Assembly (NCBI GenBank): GCA_965231055.1
Contig: OZ246411.1
Coordinates: forward strand, 180,711-244,710
Direction of reading: 5' to 3'
DNA: 64,000 nt
From: an uncultured Candidatus Saccharibacteria bacterium
Lineage (GTDB): Bacteria > Patescibacteriota > CALEFQ01 > G965231055
Part shown: piece by piece, positions 2,840 through 59,118 of the stretch
Position numbering within the stretch: the first letter of the stretch is position 1
Layout of the letters: every line of letters starts with the position of its first letter
Translations under genes and position numbers: made by a program
Notes under the pieces: generated by a model
What the model saw: the letters and a program-made list of their open reading frames with translations, nothing else
The model's database searches: none
What the model was told of the DNA's origin: nothing

Positions 2840-5071
2840 TTATTTTTTCAAAAACTTTTTCAGGAATTCATTTGATTCTTTCTGGGTCTTTACTTGATCT
2901 TTGAAATCCTCTTTCGCATCCGAAGATGGATTCAAATTTACATCATTTGTATTTGAGCCTGGGTCAACTGGAATATTAAGTTTTACTAGATGGCCTTCCT
3001 TGTCCAGCACCTTGATATCATCTCCTTTATAATCTTTTAGCCCAAAAGCCTTGACTGACGGAAACTTAAATCCTGGTTTTTCAACTGTTACCTTGTAAGT
3101 ATCTGGTCCGACTATGAAACCAAATCTACCCCTGGTATCTGTAACCTGAGTTTCCAATAGTTCATTGTATTTTTTGCTAAATATCCTAACTACAGATAGT
3201 GAAATTGGATTTCTGGAAATACTATTATAGACAATTCCCCACCTGGCTCCTGGTTTATGGAAAGTAAAGACGGTGAACAAGAATAATACTACAGCGTGAA
3301 TACCCAGCAATATCCAGTTGAGTTTGGTCGGAGAAACCCACACACAAACAACTGCAATAGCAGGGCCTATGAGCGCCATAAAAAGATTAAATCTTCTCAG
3401 CAAATATCTTTTTACTATCTGTCTCGCATCGGCGGCATCAACTTTATCAACCATCGGATCGATAGGTATATTTACATTTATCACCAAATCATTTTTGGGA
3501 ACTTGTATATTCCCCCCTAGATAAACATTGTCATAAACTTCCTCGACTCTTTGCTTCATTTTCATCGAAGGAAACTTGTACCCCTCTTTCACAACTTCTA
3601 TATAATACTCTCCGGGATCAACTATAAAACCAAATCTTCCTTTTTTGTCTGTAATCCTAGTTTCAATAAGCTTGCGATTAAGAGATTCAAAAATTCTTAC
3701 GGTGACGAGATCTATGGGTTTTTTCGTAAGAGCATTATAAACAATTCCCCATGGCTTTCTCTTTTTTCCGATAAAGAAAATGAATGGCTCAGTGAAAAGT
3801 TGCCATAAATAAGAAATAAAAGGAATAATGGCGGTACCTATGGTGGTAAGCAAGTTGATTGCCGCCAAAGCTATCAATAGCGGAGCTATGATATTTGTAT
3901 TTACAAATTGGACGAGCGAATTGTTTCTAAAAGCATTGAGGGCATCTCTAAAAATCGCCATGATTTTTTCAAATCGCGTGGGCTCTCTATATCCTTCTTC
4001 TGTAATAGTAATAAAAGCAGGCTCAGAAAATTCTGTTTCTATTCCATCTCCATTGCGGGCCTTTGATCTTACGGTATATGTCTTACCTGCTTCAGCATTG
4101 TTATAGTTCCAATCAATACCTGTTTGCCAGTTTTCGGTTCCCGAAACTCCCCCTATTTTGTCAGAATAATCTCCGTTAACTGTCACGACATATTCTGTGT
4201 AATCTGGGTTTCTCAGTGGATTTACTTCCATAGTTATGCTCCAAGAATTGCCAGATCTATATGCAGACAATATGGGTTTGCCTGGGGTTTCAGCTAGCGT
4301 ATAAGCAGTAAAAGTATAAGTACCTACGATATCTCCTGATTGATTGCGGTAGTCAACTTTCCAAGGATAGCTAGTGTTTACATCCAAATCGTCATTGGTC
4401 CAAGTATTGTCTCCTGACTGCCATCCAGAAACATCAAATGTGTCGTTGTTGGTAAAAAAGTATCCGCTTTGCAAAACATCATCGTTGTTGAACTCACATG
4501 CAGTTAGATCCATATAAGTGAGTCCTGGGATTCCATTTAGACATCCTGTGTTTGATTCTATACTTGTGGTGATGCTTATTGGTCCAGCGGGAAGACTTTC
4601 ACCAAAATAATTAAATGCATAAACATATCTACTATAAGCTGTGTTTTCTTCTAGCCCAGACTCTGTGATCGAAGAAAGATCTATTCCGTACTCTCTTTGT
4701 TGTTCAACAAAGCCAAGATCCTTTACCAAAAAACCAGATTCATCATCTGCCTGATCTGTGAAATTCCACTTTACTGATGTAGGAGAGACCAATTCTCCAG
4801 ACACTGCAAGCGGAAGATTTGGTGGTTTGAAATAAAGATAGCCAGCTCTGATTTCATAATTTGCACTATCATATTCTCCTGTAACAAAATTATTGAGAGC
4901 ATCTCTTGCATCAAAATTAGCGGAAGCCCCCTCTTCTCCAGCAACATCCACATCAAAAACTGTTAGATTGTAGTTTTCGCTATCAGCAGCGTAAACTAAA
5001 TTATACAAAAAGAATAAAGAAGCAAATGCTACAATAATTGCAAAAGTAAATTTTGTATTTTTTATATTCAT
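2840..5071 (-). CDS. Large secreted/membrane protein: signal peptide, extracellular beta-rich region, then two tandem [TM pair + carboxypeptidase-regulatory-like (CarboxypepD_reg-type) beta-sandwich] modules
   Basis: 743 aa. Internal duplication GIVYNALTKKPIDLVTVRIFESLNRKLIETRITDKKGRFGFIVDPGEYYIEVVKEGYKFPSMK versus GIVYNSISRNPISLSVVRIFSKKYNELLETQVTDTRGRFGFIVGPDTYKVTVEKPGFKFPSVK, each preceded by hydrophobic helices. Confidence 0.55.
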   Translation of the reverse strand: MNIKNTKFTFAIIVAFASLFFLYNLVYAADSENYNLTVFDVDVAGEEGASANFDARDALNNFVTGEYDSANYEIRAGYLYFKPPNLPLAVSGELVSPTSVKWNFTDQADDESGFLVKDLGFVEQQREYGIDLSSITESGLEENTAYSRYVYAFNYFGESLPAGPISITTSIESNTGCLNGIPGLTYMDLTACEFNNDDVLQSGYFFTNNDTFDVSGWQSGDNTWTNDDLDVNTSYPWKVDYRNQSGDIVGTYTFTAYTLAETPGKPILSAYRSGNSWSITMEVNPLRNPDYTEYVVTVNGDYSDKIGGVSGTENWQTGIDWNYNNAEAGKTYTVRSKARNGDGIETEFSEPAFITITEEGYREPTRFEKIMAIFRDALNAFRNNSLVQFVNTNIIAPLLIALAAINLLTTIGTAIIPFISYLWQLFTEPFIFFIGKKRKPWGIVYNALTKKPIDLVTVRIFESLNRKLIETRITDKKGRFGFIVDPGEYYIEVVKEGYKFPSMKMKQRVEEVYDNVYLGGNIQVPKNDLVINVNIPIDPMVDKVDAADARQIVKRYLLRRFNLFMALIGPAIAVVCVWVSPTKLNWILLGIHAVVLFLFTVFTFHKPGARWGIVYNSISRNPISLSVVRIFSKKYNELLETQVTDTRGRFGFIVGPDTYKVTVEKPGFKFPSVKAFGLKDYKGDDIKVLDKEGHLVKLNIPVDPGSNTNDVNLNPSSDAKEDFKDQVKTQKESNEFLKKFLKK

Positions 5072-5533: not shown

Positions 5534-6178
5534 TTAAAATATGCTCATTTGGCTCTTTTTGTCTTCAACAGACGAACTTGTTTTAGTTTGGATTTGGGCA
5601 AGTCTTTTGAGATCAAAAACTGAAGTGAGTTTGCCAGACTTTTCTCCTTTTTTTACGAGTGACATAAAAACTTTGGCAGTCAATTCAACATCAGGAAGCG
5701 CTCTGTGTCTTCCGTTTGGAATTTCCAAATCAAGATAGCTAGCCAGATCACTTAGTCCAAAACTAGCAAGCCTTATCCCTATCCCCTTCGCAAGAGAGAT
5801 GGTATCAACAAAGGAAAAGGAAGCAAGCTTTGGGCAATTTGAAGAAAATCTCTGAACTATCGCGGATTCATATGTAGCATTTTGGGCTATTACTATGTAT
5901 TTGTCTTCTCCCAAGAGCCCATCAAATTCTTTGAAAATCACCTCGGGCAATGGTTTTCCTTTTATATCCTCTGTTTTGATTCCGTTTTGAGCGGTATCGT
6001 ATTTCGTCACTTCTAAATCCCCTGGCAATCCTATCAATTTACTGTACTGAAAAGAATAATCAATCTCAAATCCTTTTTTTATTTTCATAGCTCCTATTTC
6101 TATCGGTTCAGGAGAATGCCCCTTGGGAGTAGTAGTTTCAAAATCTAGAATTAGATATTTTTGTTCTCTTATATCCAT
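5534..6178 (-). CDS. DEDD-family 3'-5' exonuclease (DnaQ/Pol III epsilon-like)
   Basis: Exo I motif LILDFETTT and Exo III motif HRALPDVELTAKVF. Confidence 0.7.
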   Translation of the reverse strand: MDIREQKYLILDFETTTPKGHSPEPIEIGAMKIKKGFEIDYSFQYSKLIGLPGDLEVTKYDTAQNGIKTEDIKGKPLPEVIFKEFDGLLGEDKYIVIAQNATYESAIVQRFSSNCPKLASFSFVDTISLAKGIGIRLASFGLSDLASYLDLEIPNGRHRALPDVELTAKVFMSLVKKGEKSGKLTSVFDLKRLAQIQTKTSSSVEDKKSQMSIF

Positions 6179-7120: not shown

Positions 7121-8242
7121 ATGTTACCTGAAAAAGATTTAAAAATAACACTGGAACTACTGAAAAAGAGTAAGTATCCTCTTATCATCTCCAAACAAGA
7201 TCCCACAGGAGATTCTATAGGAAGTATGCTTGCGCTTTATTTAGCGTTAAAAAAACTCGGAAAAAATCCTATGGTGGCATGCCATGGAAACGTGAACATT
7301 ATTTATAGATTTTTACCAAATTTTTATAGAATCGTTTCACAAATAGAATCCTCCAAAGAATTCATCATTTCGGTCAATGTCAAAAACATAAAAACAAGAG
7401 GACTAAGTTACACACTAGAAAACGACAAGCTTCATATTTTTATAGACCAGGAAAAACCCATTCTCAAGGAGGATGATGTGGAGTTTTCAGGAGTTGATAC
7501 AACCAAATTTGATCTAATAATAGCCCTAAATTGCCCTGACCTAGACGATATAGGCGAGCCTTTTGAAAAAAATTCAAAACTATTTTACGAGCTTCCTATA
7601 ATAAACATTGATCATAGAATAGAAAACTCCAATTTCGGTAAAATAAATTTAGTATCGGCTTCTGCGAGCTCTACTTCGGAAATACTTTACGAAATATTTG
7701 AATCTTTGGATGTAAATTTAGTTGATAAAGATGTGGCGACTTGCTTGCTCACCGGAATCATCGCAGACACAAATAGCTTTCAGAGTCACTCCACTACCCC
7801 ATCCACACTAGCTACTGCAGCAAAGTTAATAAGAAAAGGGGCTGATAGAAAAAAAATAGTTCAGTATCTTTTCAAAACCAAAGAGCTAGAACAAATAAAG
7901 CTTTGGGGCAAAGTTTTGCTTCACATAAACTATGACGAGAACAAAAAAATAGCATATAGCGCGATTTCTCAAAAAGAATTTGAAAGCACGGGGGCATATC
8001 CAAATCAGTTAAACGGTATAGCTGATGAAATACTCCAAAGTCTTCCCGAAATTGAAGCTGCGGTTATACTTATTCAGGAAAAAGAAGATTTGATACATGG
8101 AGCAGTTTATTCTTTTGGTAAATTTGATGCAAAAAAGTATTCCGAAACCTTCGGAGGAAAAGGAAATCAAAAACAAGCAATCTTCAAAGTCAGAAACTAT
8201 AGTCTAGATAAACTCGAAAAAGAAATACTAGATCTTAAATAA
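7121..8242 (+). CDS. DHH-family phosphoesterase (NrnA-like oligoribonuclease/pAp phosphatase)
   Basis: DHH-type motifs DPTGDSIGS and INIDHR, with a C-terminal DHHA1-like region (GGKGNQ). Confidence 0.6.
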   Translation: MLPEKDLKITLELLKKSKYPLIISKQDPTGDSIGSMLALYLALKKLGKNPMVACHGNVNIIYRFLPNFYRIVSQIESSKEFIISVNVKNIKTRGLSYTLENDKLHIFIDQEKPILKEDDVEFSGVDTTKFDLIIALNCPDLDDIGEPFEKNSKLFYELPIINIDHRIENSNFGKINLVSASASSTSEILYEIFESLDVNLVDKDVATCLLTGIIADTNSFQSHSTTPSTLATAAKLIRKGADRKKIVQYLFKTKELEQIKLWGKVLLHINYDENKKIAYSAISQKEFESTGAYPNQLNGIADEILQSLPEIEAAVILIQEKEDLIHGAVYSFGKFDAKKYSETFGGKGNQKQAIFKVRNYSLDKLEKEILDLK

Positions 8243-17870: not shown

Positions 17871-17953
17871 TGGACAATAACCTACCTAATACTTCTAATG
17901 CCTCTAGACCTTCTCGTCAAGTATAGCAGAGATAGAATAAAACAGATATAATA

Positions 17954-17982
17954 TTGACTAATAAGCCCTATCCTGATAATCT
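17954..17982 (+). promoter_or_regulatory. Putative sigma70-like promoter for tRNA-Glu
   Basis: TTGACT-17 nt-TAATCT, about 45 nt upstream of the tRNA 5' end. Confidence 0.4.
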
Positions 17983-18026
17983 TTGTCACTGTATCGAGAA
18001 GTATTCATTTTCGATCACACAAATAC

Positions 18027-18104
18027 GGCGCCATCGTCTAGCCTGGCCTAGGACGCTAGGTTTTCATCCTAGTAACTCGGGTTCGAATCCCGATGGCGCT
18101 GCCA
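18027..18104 (+). tRNA. tRNA-Glu (anticodon TTC), with encoded CCA
   Basis: Hand-folded cloverleaf. Acceptor GGCGCCA/TGGCGCT, D-stem GTCT/GGAC, anticodon stem CTAGG/CCTAG with loop TTTTCAT (U33, TTC, A37), T-arm TCGGG-TTCGAAT-CCCGA, discriminator G, CCA. Confidence 0.8.
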
Positions 18105-18245
18105 AATTTTTTTGTGGATAAAATAAGCTGAAAACTAAGGTAAAACCCCCGAGAGGGGGATTTTTTGTGCTTGTTTGAGAGAAAAAACCGGTCAAGGAAA
18201 ATTGTTTCTCATGGGAAGCAGTTTTTCTACGTTATGACATGTCTT
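18105..18245 (+). repeat. Repeat R1 immediately 3' of the tRNA; contains an intrinsic terminator (18142-18167)
   Basis: AAATTTTTTTGTGGATAAAATAAGCTGAAAACTAAGGTAAAACCCCCGAGAGGGGGATTTTTTGTGCTTGTTTGAG...GGTCAAGG... is repeated at 20543-20690 with about 85% identity. Confidence 0.7.
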
Positions 18246-18371
18246 GGTGAATCAAGCAATATTCATGTGGGACGTTTGAACCCTTTGCGTATGTAATGAT
18301 CGCTTTATGGTTTGCATTGCTTGCCCGAAAGCCATTTCGTGCTATGATTTATCTATATTAAGAAAAGAACG

Positions 18372-19151
18372 ATGAACAATTACGAATTTCTAAAAGCATA
18401 TCAAAAACTCCAGGAAGGAATAATGTTTGAAAAAATAGTCGATCTCAAGTTTGCATCTTTAGTATTTTGCAAAGGCGACAAAACCATGTATTGGAATTGG
18501 GCTCTGGTCAATAGTGTTATTCAGCGAGAAGAAATTAATACGATTGAAAAGGAAATGGAGAAAATACAAAGAAATCCCGTGATCTATTTTGAGAGCAGGC
18601 CCGATATGAATATGTTGATGAATGAGCTTGTGGATCGTGGATATAAGAAAGCCTACGCTGACTCGTGGATGTTTTATTCGAATGATAAACCAGTCGAGAC
18701 TAAGCCATATAGGGCAAAGAAGGTTGAAAATAAAAACTCTCTGCAAGAGTTTCTCCACACATTTAATATGTGCTATCAAAAGGACGACCCGCAAAATCCA
18801 TACGGAGAGCTGGGTGATTATATAAAGCAGTCGGAGATAGCTTGGCACGAACATGACGGCAAAGGAAGAATGGAATATTATATAGCTTACGATAATAAGG
18901 ATTTTCCAGTAGCAGTTGCGACCCTGATTTGCCATGGTGGAATCGGATACATAGCTAATGTTGGATCTTTGAAAAGCGTTAGAGGTAAGGGTTTCGGGAA
19001 ATTCATTACATTGCATTGCGTTAAAGAATCAAAAAAGGCAGGAAATATAATTCACTGTCTTGCCACGGAGGACGGAACCTATCCTAACGAGTTTTATAAA
19101 CGAATAGGTTTCCAGACAAAATTTATTGGAATCGCATACAAAAAATCATGA
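18372..19151 (+). CDS. GNAT-family N-acetyltransferase
   Basis: C-terminal acetyl-CoA motif VRGKGFGKFITLHCVKESKKAG...YKRIGFQ. Confidence 0.6.
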   Translation: MNNYEFLKAYQKLQEGIMFEKIVDLKFASLVFCKGDKTMYWNWALVNSVIQREEINTIEKEMEKIQRNPVIYFESRPDMNMLMNELVDRGYKKAYADSWMFYSNDKPVETKPYRAKKVENKNSLQEFLHTFNMCYQKDDPQNPYGELGDYIKQSEIAWHEHDGKGRMEYYIAYDNKDFPVAVATLICHGGIGYIANVGSLKSVRGKGFGKFITLHCVKESKKAGNIIHCLATEDGTYPNEFYKRIGFQTKFIGIAYKKS

Positions 19152-19173
19152 GGCCACGCCTCAGTATATAAAT

Positions 19174-19226
19174 CTCTTCCTGAAAACAACTCAGATCGTA
19201 CAGACCAACTAGTATACCATTATGAT
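19174..19226 (+). repeat. Partial copy of the island repeat X core (CAGATyGTAmAG...CTAG...TATTATA)
   Basis: Similar to 20390-20430 and 22484-22530; each copy lies just 3' of a stop codon. Confidence 0.45.
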
Positions 19227-19244
19227 TTTTATAATTAGTGATAT

Positions 19245-19739
19245 ATGAAATACTCGAGAAGAAAACTAAATGAAAAAGAATATATAAAAATCGCTAAGAA
19301 AGAATGTTTTATTTGCAACATTGTTAATAATGGAAATTTAAGAAAAGAGCACGCCATCGTTTACGAAGATGCTGACAATATTGTTTTTCTAAATAAATAT
19401 CCAACACAAATAGGTTATGTCCTAGTGTGTCCCAAGCAACACAAAGTTGATATTTTCAGAGATTTGAAAAAACAAGAATACGCAAAACTAATGGAGCTTG
19501 CAAGAAAAACCGGAAAGGCAATTCAACAAATAACAGACGCGGAAAGGATGTATATAGCATCGTGGGGTTCGCGACAACTAAATGAGCACATCCATTTGCA
19601 CATTTGCCCTTGCCCAAAAGGATTGCCATTTAAAAAACAGCAAATAAATGCAATGGAAATGAAGCAAGCTGGGATAATAATCATTAGCGCAAATGAAAAA
19701 GAAAAGCTCAAAGAAAAAATTCAGAAACACATAATCTAA
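19245..19739 (+). CDS. HIT-family (histidine triad) nucleotide hydrolase/transferase
   Basis: Histidine triad EHIHLHICP and N-terminal CFIC zinc-binding residues. Confidence 0.6.
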   Translation: MKYSRRKLNEKEYIKIAKKECFICNIVNNGNLRKEHAIVYEDADNIVFLNKYPTQIGYVLVCPKQHKVDIFRDLKKQEYAKLMELARKTGKAIQQITDAERMYIASWGSRQLNEHIHLHICPCPKGLPFKKQQINAMEMKQAGIIIISANEKEKLKEKIQKHII

Positions 19740-19756
19740 AAATTAATTTCCAGAAG

Positions 19757-20359
19757 ATGAAGATTATAAGTAAAAGTAGTGAGAATGAAATGATTTCTGT
19801 TTTTTTAAAAGCAGAGATTAATTCTCCGCGCTTTGGAAAAAATGTAGAATCGGCTATGAGACAAAATGGTGTTGATAGGGGTATTATTGATGAACCGAAC
19901 ATAAATGATCCTGTCGAAAACAGGAAACGGGTGGCTGTGTTGGGTTTTAGAGGATATCCGAATAGGGCATTATTCACCGGTTTTCCCCCTGATGTTGAAT
20001 GGGAATTGGTAACTGTCGATAGAAAAGATCTAGAGAAAACTCTATATATCAAAGATGATTATTGGATTAAGCTCTCAAATGAGACTAGGCTCCCAACTGA
20101 GGCTGCTAAAAATATACGGGCTGGTGTTCAGGTATATGGTCAGAGTAACCAGCAGTTTATTGATACGGCAGAAAAAATAAAATTGGGTGCCGAATTACCT
20201 GAGATGATAATAGTCGGCGATAAAAAAGGCGGGAAGCTCGTGGTCATTGAAGGACACCTACGGCTTACTTCATATATGCTTGCGCCAGATTATATTCCCA
20301 AAGGACTAAAAGCAATTGTTGGCTATTCAGAGAACATGAACAATTGGGAGCTGTTCTGA
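19757..20359 (+). CDS. Hypothetical protein (island cargo)
   Basis: 200 aa with no motif I can assign. Confidence 0.45.
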   Translation: MKIISKSSENEMISVFLKAEINSPRFGKNVESAMRQNGVDRGIIDEPNINDPVENRKRVAVLGFRGYPNRALFTGFPPDVEWELVTVDRKDLEKTLYIKDDYWIKLSNETRLPTEAAKNIRAGVQVYGQSNQQFIDTAEKIKLGAELPEMIIVGDKKGGKLVVIEGHLRLTSYMLAPDYIPKGLKAIVGYSENMNNWELF

Positions 20360-20374
20360 CTTACTCACTCCATT

Positions 20375-20546
20375 TCTTCCCACCAGAAGTAACTCAGATT
20401 GTAAAGCTCAACTAGGATGCTATTATATACACAGAAACTAAAGAGTTACTTCGGACTCATTTTCAGAAGCCCATGTTGGAACATGGAAATCACCATCCAA
20501 TTCGCGAAAAAAGGTTCCGATTGTGTCTACTGTGGCCTGCCAAATT
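20375..20546 (+). repeat. Island repeat X (copy B), ending in a degenerate copy of the tRNA 3' end (GGTTCCGATTGTGTCTACTGTGGCCTGCCA)
   Basis: About 170 nt, roughly 80% identical to 22464-22630. Its last ~30 nt resemble the tRNA-Glu T-arm/acceptor 3' half and end in CTGCCAAA. Confidence 0.65.
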
Positions 20547-20690
20547 TTTCTTGTGGATAAAATAAGCCGAAAATTAAGGTAAAACCCCCGAGAGGGGGAT
20601 TTTTTGTGCTTATTTGAGGGGAAAAGTCGGTCAAGGCAAATTGTGTCTCGTGGGAAGTAATTTCCTTGCGCTAAGGTATATTGTGGCTGA
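20543..20690 (+). repeat. Repeat R2 (copy of R1), with an intrinsic terminator at 20581-20606
   Basis: AAAACCCCCGAGAGGGGGATTTTTT hairpin. The flanks match 18105-18245. Confidence 0.7.
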
Positions 20691-20703
20691 GGCCGTTTTT
20701 TAT

Positions 20704-20732
20704 TTGACACAATTCCATAGTCTTGCTAATAT
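20704..20732 (+). promoter_or_regulatory. Putative sigma70 promoter of the three-gene island operon
   Basis: TTGACA-17 nt-TAATAT. Confidence 0.5.
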
Positions 20733-20848
20733 TCATATGCCGTTGAAATGAATTGCATTAGATAATTACAAATATCAGTATATCGGCTAATCTAAAGGGT
20801 GTATATAGAGTCTAATTTGTAACTTATAAATATTTAACATTTTCCAAG

Positions 20849-21247
20849 ATGACAAAAAAAATAACAATCGATGACTTATATTCAGATGCAGGCTCTTTTG
20901 ATGAAGAAGCTGTGCTGAAAATACTCAAGGGAAGTGTCATTTTTACGCGGAAACATGAGGTGCAATTCACGATCGACCCCTCAAAGTTGAAGACTCGCGA
21001 CGCCGTTCTCTTATACGTGCTTGCAAAAAAGGTTTTGAAGGCTAATCAGAAAATCGATGATGAGATAATTACAAGAGCTGAAATTGTAGCAAAGACGAAG
21101 CTCAATAATAATACAATTGGCGTAACGCTTATGCGTCTTGGCTCTAATAAAGGGAAGCAACTTCTTATGCCCTCCGCCTCTGGGTATGAAATGCCTACAT
21201 TCAAGGTCGCAGAGGCGTTAAAATTATTAACTAACAAAGATGAATAA
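20849..21247 (+). CDS. Small hypothetical protein, probably wHTH-like (gene 1 of the island operon)
   Basis: 132 aa, e.g. TRDAVLLYVLAKKVLK. Its stop overlaps the next gene's start (ATGAATAA). Confidence 0.5.
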   Translation: MTKKITIDDLYSDAGSFDEEAVLKILKGSVIFTRKHEVQFTIDPSKLKTRDAVLLYVLAKKVLKANQKIDDEIITRAEIVAKTKLNNNTIGVTLMRLGSNKGKQLLMPSASGYEMPTFKVAEALKLLTNKDE

Positions 21248-21674
21248 ACCTATGTTAAACGACATTGAAACAAGGGTTACCGATTTGGAAAATCGCATTA
21301 CAGCACTAGAAAAAGAACTTCACTCCGTAGGAGATTCTCCCCAGAAGGATGGTAAGACGCGAGGCCTCAGCATTAATGAATTTCTAAAAGAAAAAGAGGC
21401 AATAAAAACTATTGATATTGTTTTGGCAATTGCTGCTTACCACGAACGTTTTAATGATGCCAATTCTTTTGGTGCGAATGATTTATTTAACCTAATCAGA
21501 AAAGCTAAACGAAAGCAGCCAGCAAACATCAACGACCTTATTAATAAGAATCTAAGTAAGGGGTATTTTGAAGAGGATAATGTTGGTGATGACGGAAAAA
21601 AACGTTGGTATGTTACAAACTCCGGGATGGCAGTTGTTGACAATAATTTCAATCGCAATGAACAGAATACCTAA
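21240..21674 (+). CDS. Small protein with an N-terminal coiled coil and a C-terminal wHTH-like domain (gene 2)
   Basis: Heptad-rich N-terminus (IETRVTDLENRITALEKEL); C-terminal ...DGKKRWYVTNSGMAVV is wing-like. Confidence 0.5.
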   Translation: MNKPMLNDIETRVTDLENRITALEKELHSVGDSPQKDGKTRGLSINEFLKEKEAIKTIDIVLAIAAYHERFNDANSFGANDLFNLIRKAKRKQPANINDLINKNLSKGYFEEDNVGDDGKKRWYVTNSGMAVVDNNFNRNEQNT

Positions 21675-22386
21675 AAAAGAACTCGAATCTGTTGATGTGC
21701 ATGTTTTACCCGATGTACTGAGTATTTCACTGTGGGTGATAGAATATTTAAGCAACGAAGAAAAAGATCGTTTTGGTTCTACGGAAATTTCAAAACATAT
21801 CGTTGATAACTTAGGAGTAAGTACATCAAAACAGGCCGTTCAGGCAGCTCTAACGAAAGCCGCAAAAGAGAAGCTCTGCCACAAGGAATCTGGTAGATTC
21901 AAGTTAATGAAGAGTGGGCAAGATGAACTCTTAAAACAAATGAATAAGGGTCGCGTAACCCTTCTTGAGCCAGGCAAGCCATTTTCGGCTGGTATTGAAC
22001 TCGGTAATATTTTTTCACAAATGGAAGGTGTTGTTCGTATCAGCGATCCGTATGTTGATGAAAAAACCCTTGATGTAATTCACAAGCATTTTTCCGATTC
22101 TAGGCTAACAGTAAGAATATTAACTGCTCAGATTTCAGATGAAGCAAGATTTAAGCGTGAATTAGGGAAACTGCAAGCCGAGGGAATTTCAATCGAGGTA
22201 CACAGGATTAACCAAAGGATTTTGCACGACAGGTATTTTATAGACGACAAACATCTTTGGCTTTCTGGGAATAGTTTGAATAATCTAGGAAAGAAAGAAA
22301 GTTTTATCGTTATGTTAAGCGACGGAATACGTCAGAGCATATTGCAGGCTTTTAACTCAAGATGGCAATCTGCTATGACGATATAA
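21658..22386 (+). CDS. wHTH + phospholipase-D-superfamily (HKD-like) nuclease (gene 3)
   Basis: The C-terminal ILHDRYFIDDKHLWLSGNSLNN matches the HxK(x4)D(x6)GSxN spacing with H-x-R-x4-D-x6-G-N-S. The probable start is MNRIPKK at 21658, 17 nt inside gene 2; the track's 21568 start is a spurious upstream extension. Confidence 0.55.
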   Translation: MNRIPKKELESVDVHVLPDVLSISLWVIEYLSNEEKDRFGSTEISKHIVDNLGVSTSKQAVQAALTKAAKEKLCHKESGRFKLMKSGQDELLKQMNKGRVTLLEPGKPFSAGIELGNIFSQMEGVVRISDPYVDEKTLDVIHKHFSDSRLTVRILTAQISDEARFKRELGKLQAEGISIEVHRINQRILHDRYFIDDKHLWLSGNSLNNLGKKESFIVMLSDGIRQSILQAFNSRWQSAMTI

Positions 22387-22463
22387 AAACGTCGAGAATG
22401 ATTGCTATGGATGAAGTTGTGAACTTATTGTGTCTGACCATAGTTAATTTTTTCCACAGAAAT

Positions 22464-22630
22464 ACTTCTCACCAGAAGCAATCCAGATTGTACAGATCAG
22501 CTAGCGTTGCTATTATACCTACAAGACCTAGTGGCTTACTGCAGATTCATTTCAGAAGTCCAGTTTGGGATTTTGAACTCTCTGTCTAATTCCCTGAAAA
22601 AGGTTCCGATTATGTCTACTGTGGCCTGCC
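22464..22630 (+). repeat. Island repeat X (copy C), ending in GGTTCCGATTATGTCTACTGTGGCCTGCCAA
   Basis: Aligns to 20375-20546. Confidence 0.65.
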
Positions 22631-22653
22631 AATATTCAACATAAACTTAAATC

Positions 22654-22696
22654 TGGTTCGAACTTGCTTGCGCAAGCAAGTCCCATGGCGCTGCCA
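22654..22696 (+). repeat. Partial direct repeat of the tRNA-Glu 3' end (putative attR), interrupted by an 18-bp perfect palindrome
   Basis: GGTTCGAA-[CTTGCTTGCGCAAGCAAG]-TCCCATGGCGCTGCCAA versus the tRNA's GGTTCGAATCCCGATGGCGCTGCCA. Confidence 0.65.
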
Positions 22697-22742
22697 ATTA
22701 AATTTCAAACTTCATCATAAGCAATAATGAGTAGATAAAAAA

Positions 22743-22767
22743 CACCCGCAAATACGGGTTTTTTTGT
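22743..22767 (+). terminator. Rho-independent terminator at the island's distal edge
   Basis: ACCCG-caaata-CGGGT followed by TTTTTTTG. Confidence 0.6.
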
Positions 22768-23037
22768 TTGTAATCTCTTATCCACACCCCCACCCCCTAC
22801 CACAAGAATAGATTCGTGGTATAATCACCTTCACCCACTATCCGGTTTACGGAAGCGGGTTTTAAAACGCTCTATTTCAGGTTTAAATACTGGTTTTTCC
22901 AGCAAAAATCAAAACAAACATAGAGCTCGTAACAAAAAGGTCTCTTCTCACCCTTGAGACCTTTTTGTTTTGTCCAAATTCTGGTATTATTCATAGAACC
23001 CGAGCGACTCCCGCTCATTTTTCATAAGGAGGATGTT

Positions 23038-23427
23038 GTGACAGACATAAAAGTGTATCAAGAATTGTTGGAAGCCTGCGAGAGAAAAGATATCGATACT
23101 GTAAAGCGATGCATGGGAGAAGGAGCACGCGAATTTTTTGAAGCATGCAAGAAAGGCGACACGAAAAAAGTAAAAGAATTGCTTGGTGCCGGAGTAAATC
23201 CAAATATCAGAACTGATATTGGAGCCACGGGATTACACCTAGCTTCATCCAATGGACATATCAAGATTGTCCTCATGCTGATAAAAACAGGTGCAGATGT
23301 AAATGACCAGGGCGCTCCTCCGAAACCAAGATCTATGAATTTCGTCAAAGTAACTCCGCTCATGATGGCAAAACAATTCAAACAACCAGCTATATCGAAA
23401 GCTCTTACCGCAAATGGCGCTCGTTAA
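23038..23427 (+). CDS. Ankyrin-repeat protein
   Basis: GATGLHLASSNGHIKIVLMLIKTGADVN repeats. The probable GTG start at 23038 follows an AAGGAGG RBS; the track ORF starts earlier at 22954. A terminator follows at 23452-23480. Confidence 0.65.
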   Translation: MTDIKVYQELLEACERKDIDTVKRCMGEGAREFFEACKKGDTKKVKELLGAGVNPNIRTDIGATGLHLASSNGHIKIVLMLIKTGADVNDQGAPPKPRSMNFVKVTPLMMAKQFKQPAISKALTANGAR

Positions 23428-23552
23428 ACTCACTCAGAATTATAAAACAAAAAGACCAAGTTCGCTTGGTCTTTTCCTTTGACTAAATCAATCCGAAATG
23501 ATAGAAAGTTATCAAGATCTTTTTTAACCTCGAAAAGAAATGGAGGATATAT

Positions 23553-23942
23553 ATGTGTGGAACTCTAATGGAAGCAGTTCAAGAAAGACAGTACGACAGA
23601 ATTGAGGAACTACTGAAATTATTTGCCAGAGTGGGAGCGGGGGCAGAAATCAATACGTCCAATCTTATCGGAATGACCGCACTGCACATAGCTGCAGAAA
23701 ATAATGATAAACGGAGTATTGAATTGCTGCTTCAGTATGGAGCAAATCCGAGAACGGCAGATCGCTACAAAAAAACTCCCCTACACATCGCTGCAAGAAA
23801 CGGCAATATGGAAATTTGCGAAATGCTGGTTGCCAAAGGAGCAATCATAAATACCAAAGATACGATGAACAACACTCCTGCCTGCATTGCGATCTCCGAA
23901 GGCCATGAAGCGCTTGCCGAATGGTTCCTATCCAAGGTTTAA
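23553..23942 (+). CDS. Ankyrin-repeat protein
   Basis: GMTALHIAAENNDKRSIELLLQYGANP and KKTPLHIAARNGNMEICEMLVAKGA. RBS GGAGGA. A hairpin terminator follows at 23968-23998. Confidence 0.7.
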   Translation: MCGTLMEAVQERQYDRIEELLKLFARVGAGAEINTSNLIGMTALHIAAENNDKRSIELLLQYGANPRTADRYKKTPLHIAARNGNMEICEMLVAKGAIINTKDTMNNTPACIAISEGHEALAEWFLSKV

Positions 23943-56236: not shown

Positions 56237-56524
56237 CTAGCTTCTGATCAATATCTTCTGAACCTCATCTGAACCTAGCTTTTTGTTTACTTTTTCGACA
56301 ATAAGGTGAGTTTTATAATGAATCTCTTGAGCATATACAGATCCATTTACCGCAATAGTAAGTATTCCTTTTTTGAAGTGAAGTGATTTCACTTTGTTTT
56401 TAAAATCCTCTCCAAAATCGTTTTCTATTATTTTATCAAACTCAACACAAGCCCTACCAGCTTGTATTTGGAGCCCTAGTCCTTTACCAAGTTTGCTTTT
56501 TAGGAAAAATTGTAGTTTTTTCAT
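56237..56524 (-). CDS. DUF721-family small protein (recF-linked)
   Basis: 95 aa immediately 3' of recF, with the usual synteny. Confidence 0.5.
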   Translation of the reverse strand: MKKLQFFLKSKLGKGLGLQIQAGRACVEFDKIIENDFGEDFKNKVKSLHFKKGILTIAVNGSVYAQEIHYKTHLIVEKVNKKLGSDEVQKILIRS

Positions 56525-57645
56525 TGTTTAGACAGAGTCCCATCTTTTGCTATGTAAATTTGGGATTGTTTTTTTAGTTTGGCTGGAAGAAAAGCTAAGT
56601 CAGTTGTTGTTAGAATGCTTTGGTGGGTAAATATAGCTGGCTCTATAGACTTTCTTCGCTTTTCATCGAGTTCAGAAAACACATCATCAAGTAAAAGTAT
56701 AGGTTTTTCTCCGGTAGTTTTTTCTACATAGACCATTTCACCTAATTTCAGCGCGAGAAGCGCCGATCTCATTTCCCCTCTAGAAGCAAATGAATCTAGA
56801 GATTTATTTTCTTTATTTACAAAATCAAAATCGTCTTTGTGTGGTCCATACTTAGTTGACCTAAATCTTATATCCTCAGGGATTTGGGCTATTATTCTTT
56901 TTTGATAAGTATTAAATATTTCTTGCTGATCTGTGTTTGGAGTATTTATGTTTTCATAAACATTTGTTGCTAGTTTTATTTTTATTCCCTCTATGTTTTT
57001 TTCTTTGCCTATCGCTGAATACGATCTTTCTATACCTTGGTTGATAAAATCTATAAATTGCTTTCTAGCCCAAACGATATAGCTTCCATCTATTACAAGT
57101 TTTTCGTTCCAGAAATCGAGCTCCCACTTCTGAGCCCTATTATCAGCAATATCTCCGAGTAGAGCATTTCTTTGTCTTAAAACTTCTGTGAAATTTAGAA
57201 GAGCTTCTTTGTATTTGGGGTCAGTCTGGGTGAGAAGTAGGTTTAGATATTTTCTTCTCGAAACGGGTGGAAAATATAACAAATTCATTTCCTCAGGTGA
57301 AAACCAAACGCATTTTATAATTCCTTTGGCTTTTTTTGTAACTGTTTTTTTATGATTAAGTTTTATTTCTAAATTACTTTTTTTGATCCCTTTTTTTATA
57401 GCTAGTCTTATTTCGTTTTTTTCATTTTCAGCTCCTAAAAAAGCTTCATTTTCTGAGTCCAAAACGCAGTTTGATAAATTTGAAGTTCTGAAGGACCTTA
57501 GATGAGCCAATAAAAAAATACTCTCTAAAATATTGGTTTTACCTTGGGCGTTTGACCCCGAAATAACAGTAAAATCAGTTATTTTTTTTAGATCGAGAGC
57601 TTTAACATTTCTAAAGTTTTTTAACCAAAGTGATTTAAGAAACAC
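56521..57645 (-). CDS. recF: DNA replication and repair protein RecF
   Basis: Walker A ISGSNAQGKTNILESI and Walker B LLLDDVFSELD. Confidence 0.85.
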   Translation of the reverse strand: MFLKSLWLKNFRNVKALDLKKITDFTVISGSNAQGKTNILESIFLLAHLRSFRTSNLSNCVLDSENEAFLGAENEKNEIRLAIKKGIKKSNLEIKLNHKKTVTKKAKGIIKCVWFSPEEMNLLYFPPVSRRKYLNLLLTQTDPKYKEALLNFTEVLRQRNALLGDIADNRAQKWELDFWNEKLVIDGSYIVWARKQFIDFINQGIERSYSAIGKEKNIEGIKIKLATNVYENINTPNTDQQEIFNTYQKRIIAQIPEDIRFRSTKYGPHKDDFDFVNKENKSLDSFASRGEMRSALLALKLGEMVYVEKTTGEKPILLLDDVFSELDEKRRKSIEPAIFTHQSILTTTDLAFLPAKLKKQSQIYIAKDGTLSKQ

Positions 57646-57654
57646 TATTGAATA

Positions 57655-58002
57655 TTATTTTGTTTTGGCTTTTTTTAGCGGATCAAATCCTGCATCTATC
57701 TCTTTTTTATCTTCATATCCGTCATTGTCTGTGTCTTCGTTTTTTGGATTGGTTTTGTATTTATAAACCTCATCACCATCAGAAATACCGTCGCCGTCAG
57801 TGTCTGGATTGGTTTTGTCTGTTCCATACTCTCCTTCTTCGGAGTTTATCAATCCATCATCGTCATAATCAAGCTTTCCTTCTTTCAAGATTTCCGCGGG
57901 TGCTTCTTTGAAAAAAGTTTTGGTTCCAAAAATAATGCTAGATAGAAGCAAAAATACCCCTAAAATAGCTAGAACCAAACCATAAATTAAAACTTTTTTC
58001 AT
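57655..58002 (-). CDS. Small secreted protein with thrombospondin-type-3-like Ca-binding D-x-D-x-D-G repeats
   Basis: Signal peptide + DYDDDGLINSEE...NPDTDGDGISDGDE...DTDNDGYEDKKE. Confidence 0.55.
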   Translation of the reverse strand: MKKVLIYGLVLAILGVFLLLSSIIFGTKTFFKEAPAEILKEGKLDYDDDGLINSEEGEYGTDKTNPDTDGDGISDGDEVYKYKTNPKNEDTDNDGYEDKKEIDAGFDPLKKAKTK

Positions 58003-58014
58003 TTTTGTTTTTAT

Positions 58015-59118
58015 TTATTGCTTAATGGGCATAATAATATAAATATAACTTTTATCCCCCTCTCCCCTAATCATTCCTGGCATAGAATTTCCGCTAATCC
58101 CAAGCTCAACAATCTCTTCGTCTATAACAGATAGTCCTTCCAAAAGATATTTGTAATTAAAAGTTATTTCTGTGTTTTCGCCTTTGTTTTTACAAGGTAT
58201 TTTAGCTTCACTCTTTCCTATGCTTTCAGTAGCGGCGGATATTTTCAGGGTATTGCTTTCTAGGTCGGTTTCTATTTTTATATCACTCACGCCTGCTTTG
58301 GAAAAAAGACTGGTAGTTTTTATCGTATTTATCAAAACGCCTCTTTCCACAAACACAGACGTAGTTGAACTTGCTGGGATTATTTGAATATAATCTGGAA
58401 ATTTTCCATCAACCAATCTAGAAGTAATAATAACATCTTCGAATGAGAACATCACCTGATTTTCTGTGGCTCTTATTTTTACGCTTCCTTCTTTTTCGGA
58501 TAAAACCCTTTCTAGCGCCCTCATTGTTTTAGCTGGGATAATCATCGCTATCTTTGTTTTAGAGGCCACAGGAAGCTTATATCGGAACTCTGCTAGTCTA
58601 TAGCTATCAGTAGAAGCCAAGACCAATTGATCGCCCTCTAAAGCGAAATAAACGCCTGCTATTTCTGGTCTCGAAAAATCATTAGCTACGGCGAATACTG
58701 TTTTCTTTATCGCTTCAAGTAAAATTCTGCAATCAACCTCAAAAGATGTTCCGTCTTTAATTTCAGGTATAAGCGGAAACTCTTCTGGAGATATTCCGGA
58801 AAATGTAGTGGAGTTATTAGCGCTAGAAACAGACAAAACCAAGTCAGTGCAAGAAAGACCAAGTTTTTCATCGCGAATAGAGCTCACATATTGCATCAGA
58901 AGCTTGGCTGGAATAGTTATACTTCCTTCTTGTTCAATTTTACCTGAAACAAAACAATTAATTCCTACTTCGAGATCTGTAGCTGATAGTTTGAGTTGTC
59001 CGTTTTCTGTTTTAAGCAAAACATTTGCGAGTACGGGTAGTGCCGCATCTTGGGTAGGTGTATTTCCCAAAATCTGTAATCCTTTATTTAGGTTTTCCTT
59101 TATACACAGAAATTTCAT
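58015..59118 (-). CDS. dnaN: DNA polymerase III beta sliding clamp
   Basis: MKFLCIKENLNKGLQILGN...LKLSATDLEVGI. Confidence 0.85.
   Translation of the reverse strand: MKFLCIKENLNKGLQILGNTPTQDAALPVLANVLLKTENGQLKLSATDLEVGINCFVSGKIEQEGSITIPAKLLMQYVSSIRDEKLGLSCTDLVLSVSSANNSTTFSGISPEEFPLIPEIKDGTSFEVDCRILLEAIKKTVFAVANDFSRPEIAGVYFALEGDQLVLASTDSYRLAEFRYKLPVASKTKIAMIIPAKTMRALERVLSEKEGSVKIRATENQVMFSFEDVIITSRLVDGKFPDYIQIIPASSTTSVFVERGVLINTIKTTSLFSKAGVSDIKIETDLESNTLKISAATESIGKSEAKIPCKNKGENTEITFNYKYLLEGLSVIDEEIVELGISGNSMPGMIRGEGDKSYIYIIMPIKQ

Follow-up and report, generated by a model that had tools for sequence, protein, structure and literature searches.

A widespread three-gene operon of winged-helix proteins and an HDR-type PLD-fold protein, seen in a tRNA island of a Saccharibacteria genome

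Introduction

The question raised by the locus described here is what three small, closely packed genes, one of them coding for a protein with a phospholipase D (PLD) superfamily fold, are doing in an island behind a tRNA gene of an uncultured Candidatus Saccharibacteria bacterium. The locus was noticed in a 64,000-nt stretch of contig OZ246411.1, referred to here as the window, and comprises three same-strand open reading frames (ORFs) at 20849-22386 on the + strand, here called g1, g2 and g3 and collectively the triad. A reading of the letters without database searches (the sequence-only reading) had proposed a novel system in which two small partners accompany a nuclease with a winged helix and an HKD-like PLD domain. 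After comparison with other genomes, families and structures, the triad proves to be a widespread operon that has no name, and by the sequence comparisons g1, g2 and g3 are genuine genes. As to function, the reading put forward here is that of an autoregulated, horizontally mobile cassette that would defend its host against incoming DNA, from phage or plasmid, a proposal to which we give an even chance. It draws on the co-inheritance of the three genes, their folds, the invariance of one site in g3, the genomic context and a conserved promoter with two operator-like boxes.

Gene content and co-inheritance

The first gene, g1 (20849-21247, + strand), codes for 132 amino acids; an acidic motif near its N-terminus (TIDDLYSDAGxFDE) is conserved, and residues ~66-126 probably form a winged helix. 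It is followed by g2 (21252-21674, +), which codes for 140 amino acids from the ATG at 21252 or 144 from an alternative ATG at 21240, and by g3 (21658-22386, +), with 242 amino acids from the ATG at 21658. The three ORFs and the 17-nt overlap of g2 and g3 had been placed correctly at the outset, and an overlap of the same length is found in four further loci (L002, L005, L006 and L007). The 8-nt overlap originally described between g1 and g2 is doubtful, because all 19 aligned g2 orthologues, as well as the gene call in the identical contig L005, start at the equivalent of ATG 21252, which leaves a 4-nt gap at this junction.

Database searches returned 90 homologues of g3, 35 of g2 and 43 of g1, at 40-100% identity overall; the g3 homologues share 40-91% identity and are nearly all 238-250 aa long. 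Homologues of all three are annotated as 'hypothetical protein', save one g3 homologue that carries the JGI label 'DNA mismatch repair ATPase MutS'. Loci were gathered by exact-protein look-ups and by scanning a single genome for each GTDB species. In 13 of the 19 evaluable loci the three genes lie side by side in unchanged order, which bears out the view of the triad as a unit, and their identities to the window proteins fall in step, from 79/62/81% for g1/g2/g3 in L001 to 35/39/45% in L014, as expected under co-inheritance. According to the records, the hosts include Patescibacteria (Saccharibacteria, Parcubacteria and Taylorbacteria), Gammaproteobacteria, Poribacteria, Bacteriovorax, Planctomycetales and Omnitrophota, and since they span such different groups the triad has spread by horizontal transfer. 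When 1.84 billion representative proteins were searched with a profile, 2,682 relatives of g3 were detected at E<1e-3, of which 686 lie below 1e-10 and 114 below 1e-30.

The PLD-fold domain of g3

An AlphaFold model of g3, built on a 34-sequence alignment and having a mean predicted local distance difference test score (pLDDT) of 91.4, contains an N-terminal winged helix of the PadR/MarR type (residues ~15-95, nt ~21700-21942, +) and a C-terminal PLD-fold domain (residues ~99-242, nt ~21952-22383, +). The modelled C-terminal domain has the alpha/beta fold of Nuc, Zucchini and BfiI, and Foldseek comparison likewise supports the PLD fold that had been proposed from motif spacing.

The motif on which that proposal was based, LHDRYFIDDKHLWLSGNSLNN, is present as described, with His190 (22225-22227), Arg192 (22231-22233), Asp at both +6 and +7 and Gly-Asn-Ser from +14; the Asp conserved in the family is the one at +6 (D196), not the one at +7 that had been singled out. 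The canonical HKD motif, HxK(x)4D(x)6GSxN, differs in that its Lys position is occupied in g3 by an invariant Arg and the Asp stands at +6. The last motif element is GNSxN in close relatives, and only its Gly is invariant in the wide family. Among the 34 members of the close g3 family, H190, D191, R192, Y193, W201, G204, N205, S206, N208, G211, K213, E214, S215 and D130 are invariant. Across 107 representatives of the wide family, at 22-43% identity, invariance is restricted to H190, D191, R192 and G204, with D130 conserved in at least 90%.

This pattern is precisely a signature described by Li et al. (NAR 2025, PMC12065111), who reported an acidic residue after an early strand and an 'HDR motif' before a later strand in the PB-PLD1 effector domain of Menshen NsnC, and the same signature in the MIT_C domain of MITD1 and in many BrxL C-termini. 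In the g3 model, D130 (codon 22045-22047, +) follows strand 125-129 within an SDPYVD motif and is a candidate for the acidic residue of an HDR-type site, and the clade signature His190-Asp191-Arg192 (codons CAC GAC AGG, 22225-22233, +) precedes strand 193-195. Library matches of the 107 wide-family representatives are divided between Pfam MIT_C (9), PLDc_2 (12 at E<0.01) and PADLOC NsnC (3). From the conserved residues and the model, the C-terminal domain of g3 is assigned to the MIT_C-like 'HDR' clade of the PLD superfamily and is not simply a degenerate HKD nuclease. The winged helix and PLD fold of the sequence-only reading therefore stand, and its HKD-like label does not; for g3, 'nuclease' is a putative term.

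The domain order of g3 (winged helix, connecting helix, PLD-like domain) is also that of the archaeal winged-helix regulators and chromatin proteins TrmB and TrmBL2, from which the main rival to the defence reading arises. In it, g3 would be a TrmB/TrmBL2-like member of a non-catalytic DNA-binding or regulatory complex, with a PLD-like domain that binds a ligand, phosphate or partner, and all three proteins, with their winged helices, would serve to coat, silence or control DNA, such as that of the island itself or foreign DNA (xenogeneic silencing). Such a complex is considered unlikely. TM-scores between g3 and TrmB or TrmBL2 are only 0.33-0.39, g3 has no match to Pfam TrmB or Regulator_TrmB at E<=1, and the C-terminal sugar-binding barrel of TrmB is absent from g3, which has instead a strictly conserved HDR site. 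Taken domain by domain, structural matches of g3 are stronger to the true nucleases SauUSI, Nuc and NucT than to TrmB. That only His-Asp-Arg and a single Gly are invariant across 107 members is typical of an enzyme or of a strict phosphate-binding site rather than of a regulator tuned to a ligand, and a pure regulator would be unlikely to cross phyla with its own promoter and without target genes.

Comparison with known systems

No named system corresponding to the triad was found in PADLOC-DB v2.0.0 and no description of it in the searchable literature, in keeping with its initial treatment as unnamed. The single-HKD PLD nucleases (Nuc, NucT, BfiI, the R protein of NgoAVII, the PLD domain of SauUSI and DrmC of DISARM) have Lys where g3 has its invariant Arg; g3 also differs from them in the Asp spacing and in the GSxN element, which reads GNSxN and is unconserved in the wider family. 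Compared with the systems in which such nucleases serve restriction or defence, the triad has neither an ATPase motor nor a fixed methylase. The match of g3 to the DrmC hidden Markov model (HMM) reaches only E 0.014 and the cassette contains no helicase or DUF1998 gene, whereas DISARM has DrmC together with such a pair, DrmA/DrmB, and the cognate methyltransferase that BfiI/NgoAVII-like restriction-modification (RM) systems carry in the same operon was not found in the window island.

Other proteins with the HDR signature have different N-termini, namely an inactive PIN domain in NsnC, an MIT domain in MITD1 and an AAA+/Lon module in BrxL, whereas that of g3 is a winged helix. The Menshen system (NsnA-NsnB-NsnC) further differs in its partners, which are a ParB-DUF262 protein and an ATPase rather than small winged-helix proteins; g1 and g2 have no PADLOC or Pfam match to the Menshen families, and the N-terminus of g3 is not PIN-like.

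The sequence-only reading recognised no relatives of the small partners, and for g1 and g2 this still holds: PADLOC-DB v2.0.0 gave no match to either, and NCBIfam and PHROGs contain no family for them. For g3, two relationships have emerged. Two HMMs of the PADLOC candidate system PDC-S05 match it, with E 1.8e-14 (positions 126-301 of 306) and 4e-13 (139-281 of 285), and 104 of the 107 wider-family representatives match as well, albeit weakly (best 8e-19). Because nearly all members match only weakly, the g3 family is probably a relative rather than a member of PDC-S05, which by definition consists of one gene, unlike g3 with its constant company of partners. One PDC-S05 representative, described with a Virulence_RhuM domain, is reported to have protected E. 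coli B against T7, T5 and T4 (PMC12881386). The second relationship is to NCBIfam NF040700 (VPA1262_N_dom), where residues 49-237 of g3 align to positions 281-477 of 478 (E 1.8e-11) with 43.5 bits against a cutoff of 80 bits; VPA1262-family proteins are much larger than g3. VPA1262 lies in VPaI-6, a GMT island, and the title of 10.1101/2023.03.28.534373 describes GMT elements as rich in defensive and offensive tools. The triad is best classed among the PLD-based defence candidates.

The partner proteins g1 and g2

An enlarged g1-type profile gave sub-threshold but concordant matches, at residues ~66-126, to the winged helices of ArsR, MarR and DtxR and to cullin WH-B, and single g1-type members match Pfam HTH_24, TrmB, Phage_rep_O and RepL; on this basis g1 is a probable winged-helix protein. 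In g2, an N-terminal helix (residues 2-28) forming a coiled coil is followed by a disordered linker and by a winged helix at residues 41-135, the recognition helix of which contains an invariant P-x-N-x-N-D-x-x-N. The coiled-coil and winged-helix character first ascribed to both partners is thus confirmed in full for g2, and for g1 extends to the sub-threshold winged-helix matches. A sequence-profile search of the PDB with g1, g2 and g3 returned nothing significant, g1 matching only winged helices weakly and g2 only coiled-coil peptides.

The possibility that the winged helices of g1, g2 and g3 are paralogues was considered and dropped: profile-profile comparison (hhalign) gave no similarity among them, and within the canonical triad they are therefore not detectably paralogous. 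As a separate observation, the g2 orthologue of L002 contains three exact tandem 21-nt repeats (5558-5629) coding for ARFTDLE x3, which are extra N-terminal coiled-coil heptads, and the length of the g2 coiled coil therefore varies by whole heptads.

In the loci that depart from the canonical order, co-directional genes still precede g3, and g3 always has partner genes. Their domains were compared with HMMs of g1, g2 and the g3 N-terminus, the E-values of this comparison referring to a 14-sequence database. In L022 (6576-7907), three tandem g1-type paralogues of 149, 128 and 137 aa stand before the g3 homologue and there is no g2. A fusion of a g1-type and a g3-N-type domain accompanies a g2 gene in L018, a g2-type fusion is the partner of g3 in L017, and the winged helix of the g3-N type, besides its occurrence in the L018 fusion, recurs in the partner protein of L021. 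More distant g3 relatives have a g1-type domain beside them in L025 and L027, and one of the g2 type in L028. The g1-type domain is the most widespread partner domain, and the core of the wider family, as judged from these domain assignments, is a winged-helix/HDR-PLD protein with one to three winged-helix partners.

A compact, translationally coupled and autoregulated-looking operon, in which small DNA-binding proteins are encoded upstream of a putative nuclease, also brings to mind a toxin-antitoxin (TA) or addiction module. In such a module the part of a DNA-damaging toxin would fall to g3 and that of antitoxin and transcriptional autorepressor to g1, g2 or both, and the module would stabilise its small island, which might suit the finding of the triad in islands that lack an integrase and persist nonetheless. 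The number of components and the shuffling of multi-domain partners are atypical of classical type II TA pairs, no antitoxin family of PADLOC or Pfam was matched, and no copies were found on sequenced plasmids. We regard a TA module as quite improbable, with the proviso that it overlaps abortive-infection defence and cannot be cleanly separated from the defence reading.

Promoter and operator-like boxes

The 100 nt upstream of g1 were aligned for ten loci of different phyla, and the alignment contains invariant blocks within otherwise diverged sequence. They include a promoter (-35 TTGACx, 17-nt spacer, -10 TAnAnT), which accompanies the operon from genome to genome and in orthologues reads TTGACT-17-TAGACT/TAnAAT. 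Its counterpart in the window, the function of which is inferred, lies at 20783-20811 (+), with a degenerate -35 element TCGGCT (20783-20788), a 17-nt spacer and a -10 element TAGAGT (20806-20811).

This promoter is bracketed by two boxes. Box 1, GATAATTACA (20761-20770, +), is a putative operator at -88 to -79 from the ATG of g1. Of the 14 canonical loci examined, 9, among them the window, have it at this place (-79 to -89). Box 2, TGTAACTTATA (20818-20828, +; consensus TGTAAnTTATC), lies about -31 from the ATG, just downstream of the -10 element, and is the reverse complement of Box 1 plus one extra central base. By its place in the sequence, Box 2 sits where transcription should start and may be positioned to occlude the start. 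Together with the strong conservation of the recognition helices of g2 and g3, the position of Box 2 supports the idea that one of the encoded proteins would act as an autorepressor.

In the 64-kb window GATAATTACA occurs twice, against 0.20 expected, the second occurrence being inside g1 at 21064-21073. There it falls in the codons for a conserved E-I-I-T of g1 and is found at the same position (+215) in L001, L006 and L007. It was considered as a further operator and set aside as unproven, being kept only in the closest relatives and lost by synonymous changes in L013; shared ancestry may account for it instead. A further observation concerns translation: no Shine-Dalgarno sequence precedes g1, and in several phyla TTTACAC stands directly 5' of the start codon instead (within the last 12 nt in L003, L008 and L010-L013). 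TTTACAC contains the TTACA half of the operator box, and the window has TTTTCCAAG at this place (20838-20848).

The promoter originally assigned to the cassette, TTGACA-17-TAATAT, does exist (20704-20732, +), where it outranks every other promoter-like match in 17900-23000. In other genomes, however, the operon does not keep this site, and since it is homologous to ATGACA-18-AATATT at 18234-18263, behind the tRNA, it belongs to a duplicated junction rather than being the cassette's own promoter. As a class, promoter-like sites are not enriched in the region (19 found, 15.8 expected).

Genomic neighbourhood

The triad is found in variable islands, mostly near restriction-modification and other phage-defence genes. 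Its neighbourhoods resemble defence islands, in line with the anti-phage or anti-plasmid role first considered for it. Among 148 neighbouring ORFs within ~6 kb in 20 loci, Pfam matches include N6_N4_Mtase (7), AAA_21 (5), SMC_N (4), ResIII (3), HNH (2), UvrD (2) and Recombinase (2), and the PADLOC families include MTase_II/III, REase_II, MADS mad2/3/8 and AriA. Individual loci combine several of these, with GmrSD-N and HNH in L001, a methylase and UvrD in L002, and a methylase, ResIII and a serine recombinase in L003.

The presence of methylases bears on another explanation, in which the triad would be the nuclease arm of an RM-type system; g3 would then be a BfiI/NgoAVII-like or a SauUSI-like, modification-dependent nuclease, g1 and g2 would act in control or specificity, and the methylase would be encoded next to the triad or at another place in the genome. 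The combination of PLD and DNA-binding domains does resemble BfiI and NgoAVII, and 7 of 19 loci have a DNA methylase gene, in the orientation of the triad, no more than ~3 kb away; it comes directly after g3 in L010 (52-nt gap) and L021 (55-nt gap). Yet the window island, like most of the loci, lacks a methylase, and those present differ in family (EcoRI-type, N6_N4 and type III) as well as position. Because of these differences, co-location in defence or RM islands fits better than a fixed methylase partnership, and an RM arm is judged very unlikely.

The tRNA-Glu island

The location in a tRNA island, noted from the start, is upheld: the island begins at a tRNA-Glu gene (18027-18104) and contains three cassettes, of which the triad is the third. 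Cassette 1 carries a GNAT gene (18372-19151), and cassette 2 a HIT gene (19245-19739) together with a 200-aa ORF (19757-20359). After each of the three comes the sequence CAGATTGTACAGxTCAxCTAG (19192, 20395 and 22484, respectively). The triad cassette is delimited by a 168-nt direct repeat, designated R, with its left copy at 20376-20543 (+), ending in the tRNA-3'-like sequence GGTTCCGATTGTGTCTACTGTGGCCTGCCAA, and its right copy at 22465-22632 (+), ~81% identical and 2089 nt from the left one. At the left junction, 20543-20686 (+) is an 83% copy of the segment downstream of tRNA-Glu (18104-18247), including a terminator hairpin, CCCCCGAGAGGGGG, at 20585-20598. On the other side, the island is bounded by a remnant of the tRNA-Glu 3' end (22655-22696, +; GGTTCGAA ... 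TCCCATGGCGCTGCCA). Neither in the island nor among further ORFs scanned did an integrase turn up. Such a pattern agrees with the accretion, at a tRNA site, of cis-mobilisable elements that lack an integrase (CIME-like).

A noncoding RNA or pseudo-tRNA gene was considered as an explanation for repeat R and rejected, as Rfam searches in gathering and E-value modes gave no family and folding gave no signal (z = -0.31). Two Logan contigs from independent assemblies of the same organism, L031 and L005 (SRR10912415_452 and SRR10912416_38901), are interrupted near the 3' end of tRNA-Glu and at either end of the triad cassette, break points that are consistent with the repeats described here. The 200-aa ORF of cassette 2 belongs to no Pfam, NCBIfam or PADLOC-type family and has only a faint ParB-like PHROG match (E 0.27).

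This arrangement invites the thought that the triad is itself a mobility module, g3 acting as a phospho-histidine DNA transferase that, with its winged-helix partners, would insert or excise the cassette at tRNA genes. The window cassette does lie between 168-nt repeats that end tRNA-3'-like, in an island without integrase; in L011 the triad lies between tRNA-Glu(UUC) and a 15-nt copy of the 3' end of that tRNA, again without an integrase; and tRNA genes occur within ~2 kb of the triad in ~9 of 20 loci. However, the two neighbouring cassettes of the window share the end motif and lack the triad, as would fit a conventional integrase mobilising them in trans, and Box 1 and Box 2 are at the promoter rather than at the cassette ends. 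Flanking repeats are also missing from most other loci: apart from the tRNA-Glu 3' repeat of L011, a search around the triad in eight other loci found direct repeats only in L002 (33 nt). A dedicated mobility module is thus highly improbable, and equally so a double role of g3 as effector and cassette-moving transferase, which would explain the cassette array of the window and the tRNA-Glu duplication of L011. In L002 the 33-nt direct repeat (4560-4606 and 7593-7639, 94% identical) brackets a tRNA-Ser gene and the triad over 3.0 kb, which suggests that this segment was inserted as a block.

Elsewhere in the window, two ankyrin-repeat genes directly to the right of the island (22954-23942) hint at a host-associated lifestyle, and an IS110-family transposase gene (Pfam Transposase_20, 35654-36844) lies in the sole GC-rich patch (46% compared with ~36%). 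The presence of dnaN (58015-59118) beside a recF-like SMC_N/AAA_15 gene (56521-57645), together spanning 56521-59118, indicates that the window is probably near the replication origin region.

Proposed function

Several observations weigh against a catalytic, defensive triad. The canonical Lys is absent from g3, and its match to Pfam PLDc_2 reaches 19.0 bits (E 1.4e-3) where the gathering threshold is 27 bits. The top full-length Foldseek matches of g3 are TrmBL2 and TrmB, which are non-enzymatic DNA-binding proteins (E 1.6e-6). Enzymatic activity of HDR domains is stated as a hypothesis needing study in PMC12065111, and the title of a reference in that paper presents the PLD-like domain of MITD1 as a membrane binder. 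The match to PDC-S05 is partial, covering ~175 C-terminal profile positions, and the phage phenotype of PDC-S05 is not transferable to g3, because g3 has no Virulence_RhuM match. The neighbourhood evidence is a raw count without a genome-wide background. Finally, tblastn found no match to g3 in 72,556 plasmids or in 50,697 phage genomes, and a search of IMG/VR with g3 gave one partial match only, of 46 residues; carriage on known plasmids or phages is therefore unsupported.

For the defence reading, which we retain at the even chance given above, the co-inheritance, folds, invariant site, context and conserved promoter with its boxes are shown, and we infer the rest, from dimerisation and catalysis to what the partners do and the phenotype. 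A mechanism may be outlined as follows. By analogy with the single-motif PLD nucleases Nuc, BfiI and Zucchini, g3 might dimerise through its PLD domain, and the dimer would build one composite His/Arg/Asp site. This site would attack the phosphodiester backbone of DNA gripped by the winged helices, through a phospho-histidine intermediate and without a metal. The g1 and g2 proteins would be DNA-binding sensor, adaptor or regulator subunits, g2 presumably oligomerising via its coiled coil, and at least one of the three proteins would bind Box 1 and Box 2, repressing the operon until it is needed. Since the window island has no methylase, discrimination between self and non-self needs something besides a cognate methylase; candidates are a feature of the foreign DNA, or tight repression with an abortive-infection-like release.

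Significance

If the triad is truly a defence system, it would be a compact one, of ~1.6 kb and with its own promoter, and one common in uncultured small-genome lineages (Patescibacteria) in which few defence systems are known. The three types of winged-helix partner shuffled around one effector would provide a clear example of sensor/effector polymorphism. It is conceivable, though we put it somewhat short of even, that a large new defence family, of at least 2,682 representative clusters, begins with the triad, and that MIT_C-like HDR domains thereby gain their first catalytic role. With a conserved promoter bearing two operator boxes and three small soluble proteins, the system should be easy to reconstitute, and it lends itself well to testing whether enzymatic activity exists in the HDR (MIT_C-like) branch of the PLD superfamily, a question that has been raised for NsnC, for BrxL of BREX and for human MITD1. 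Were HDR catalysis to prove true, it would have implications for BrxL and for eukaryotic MITD1.

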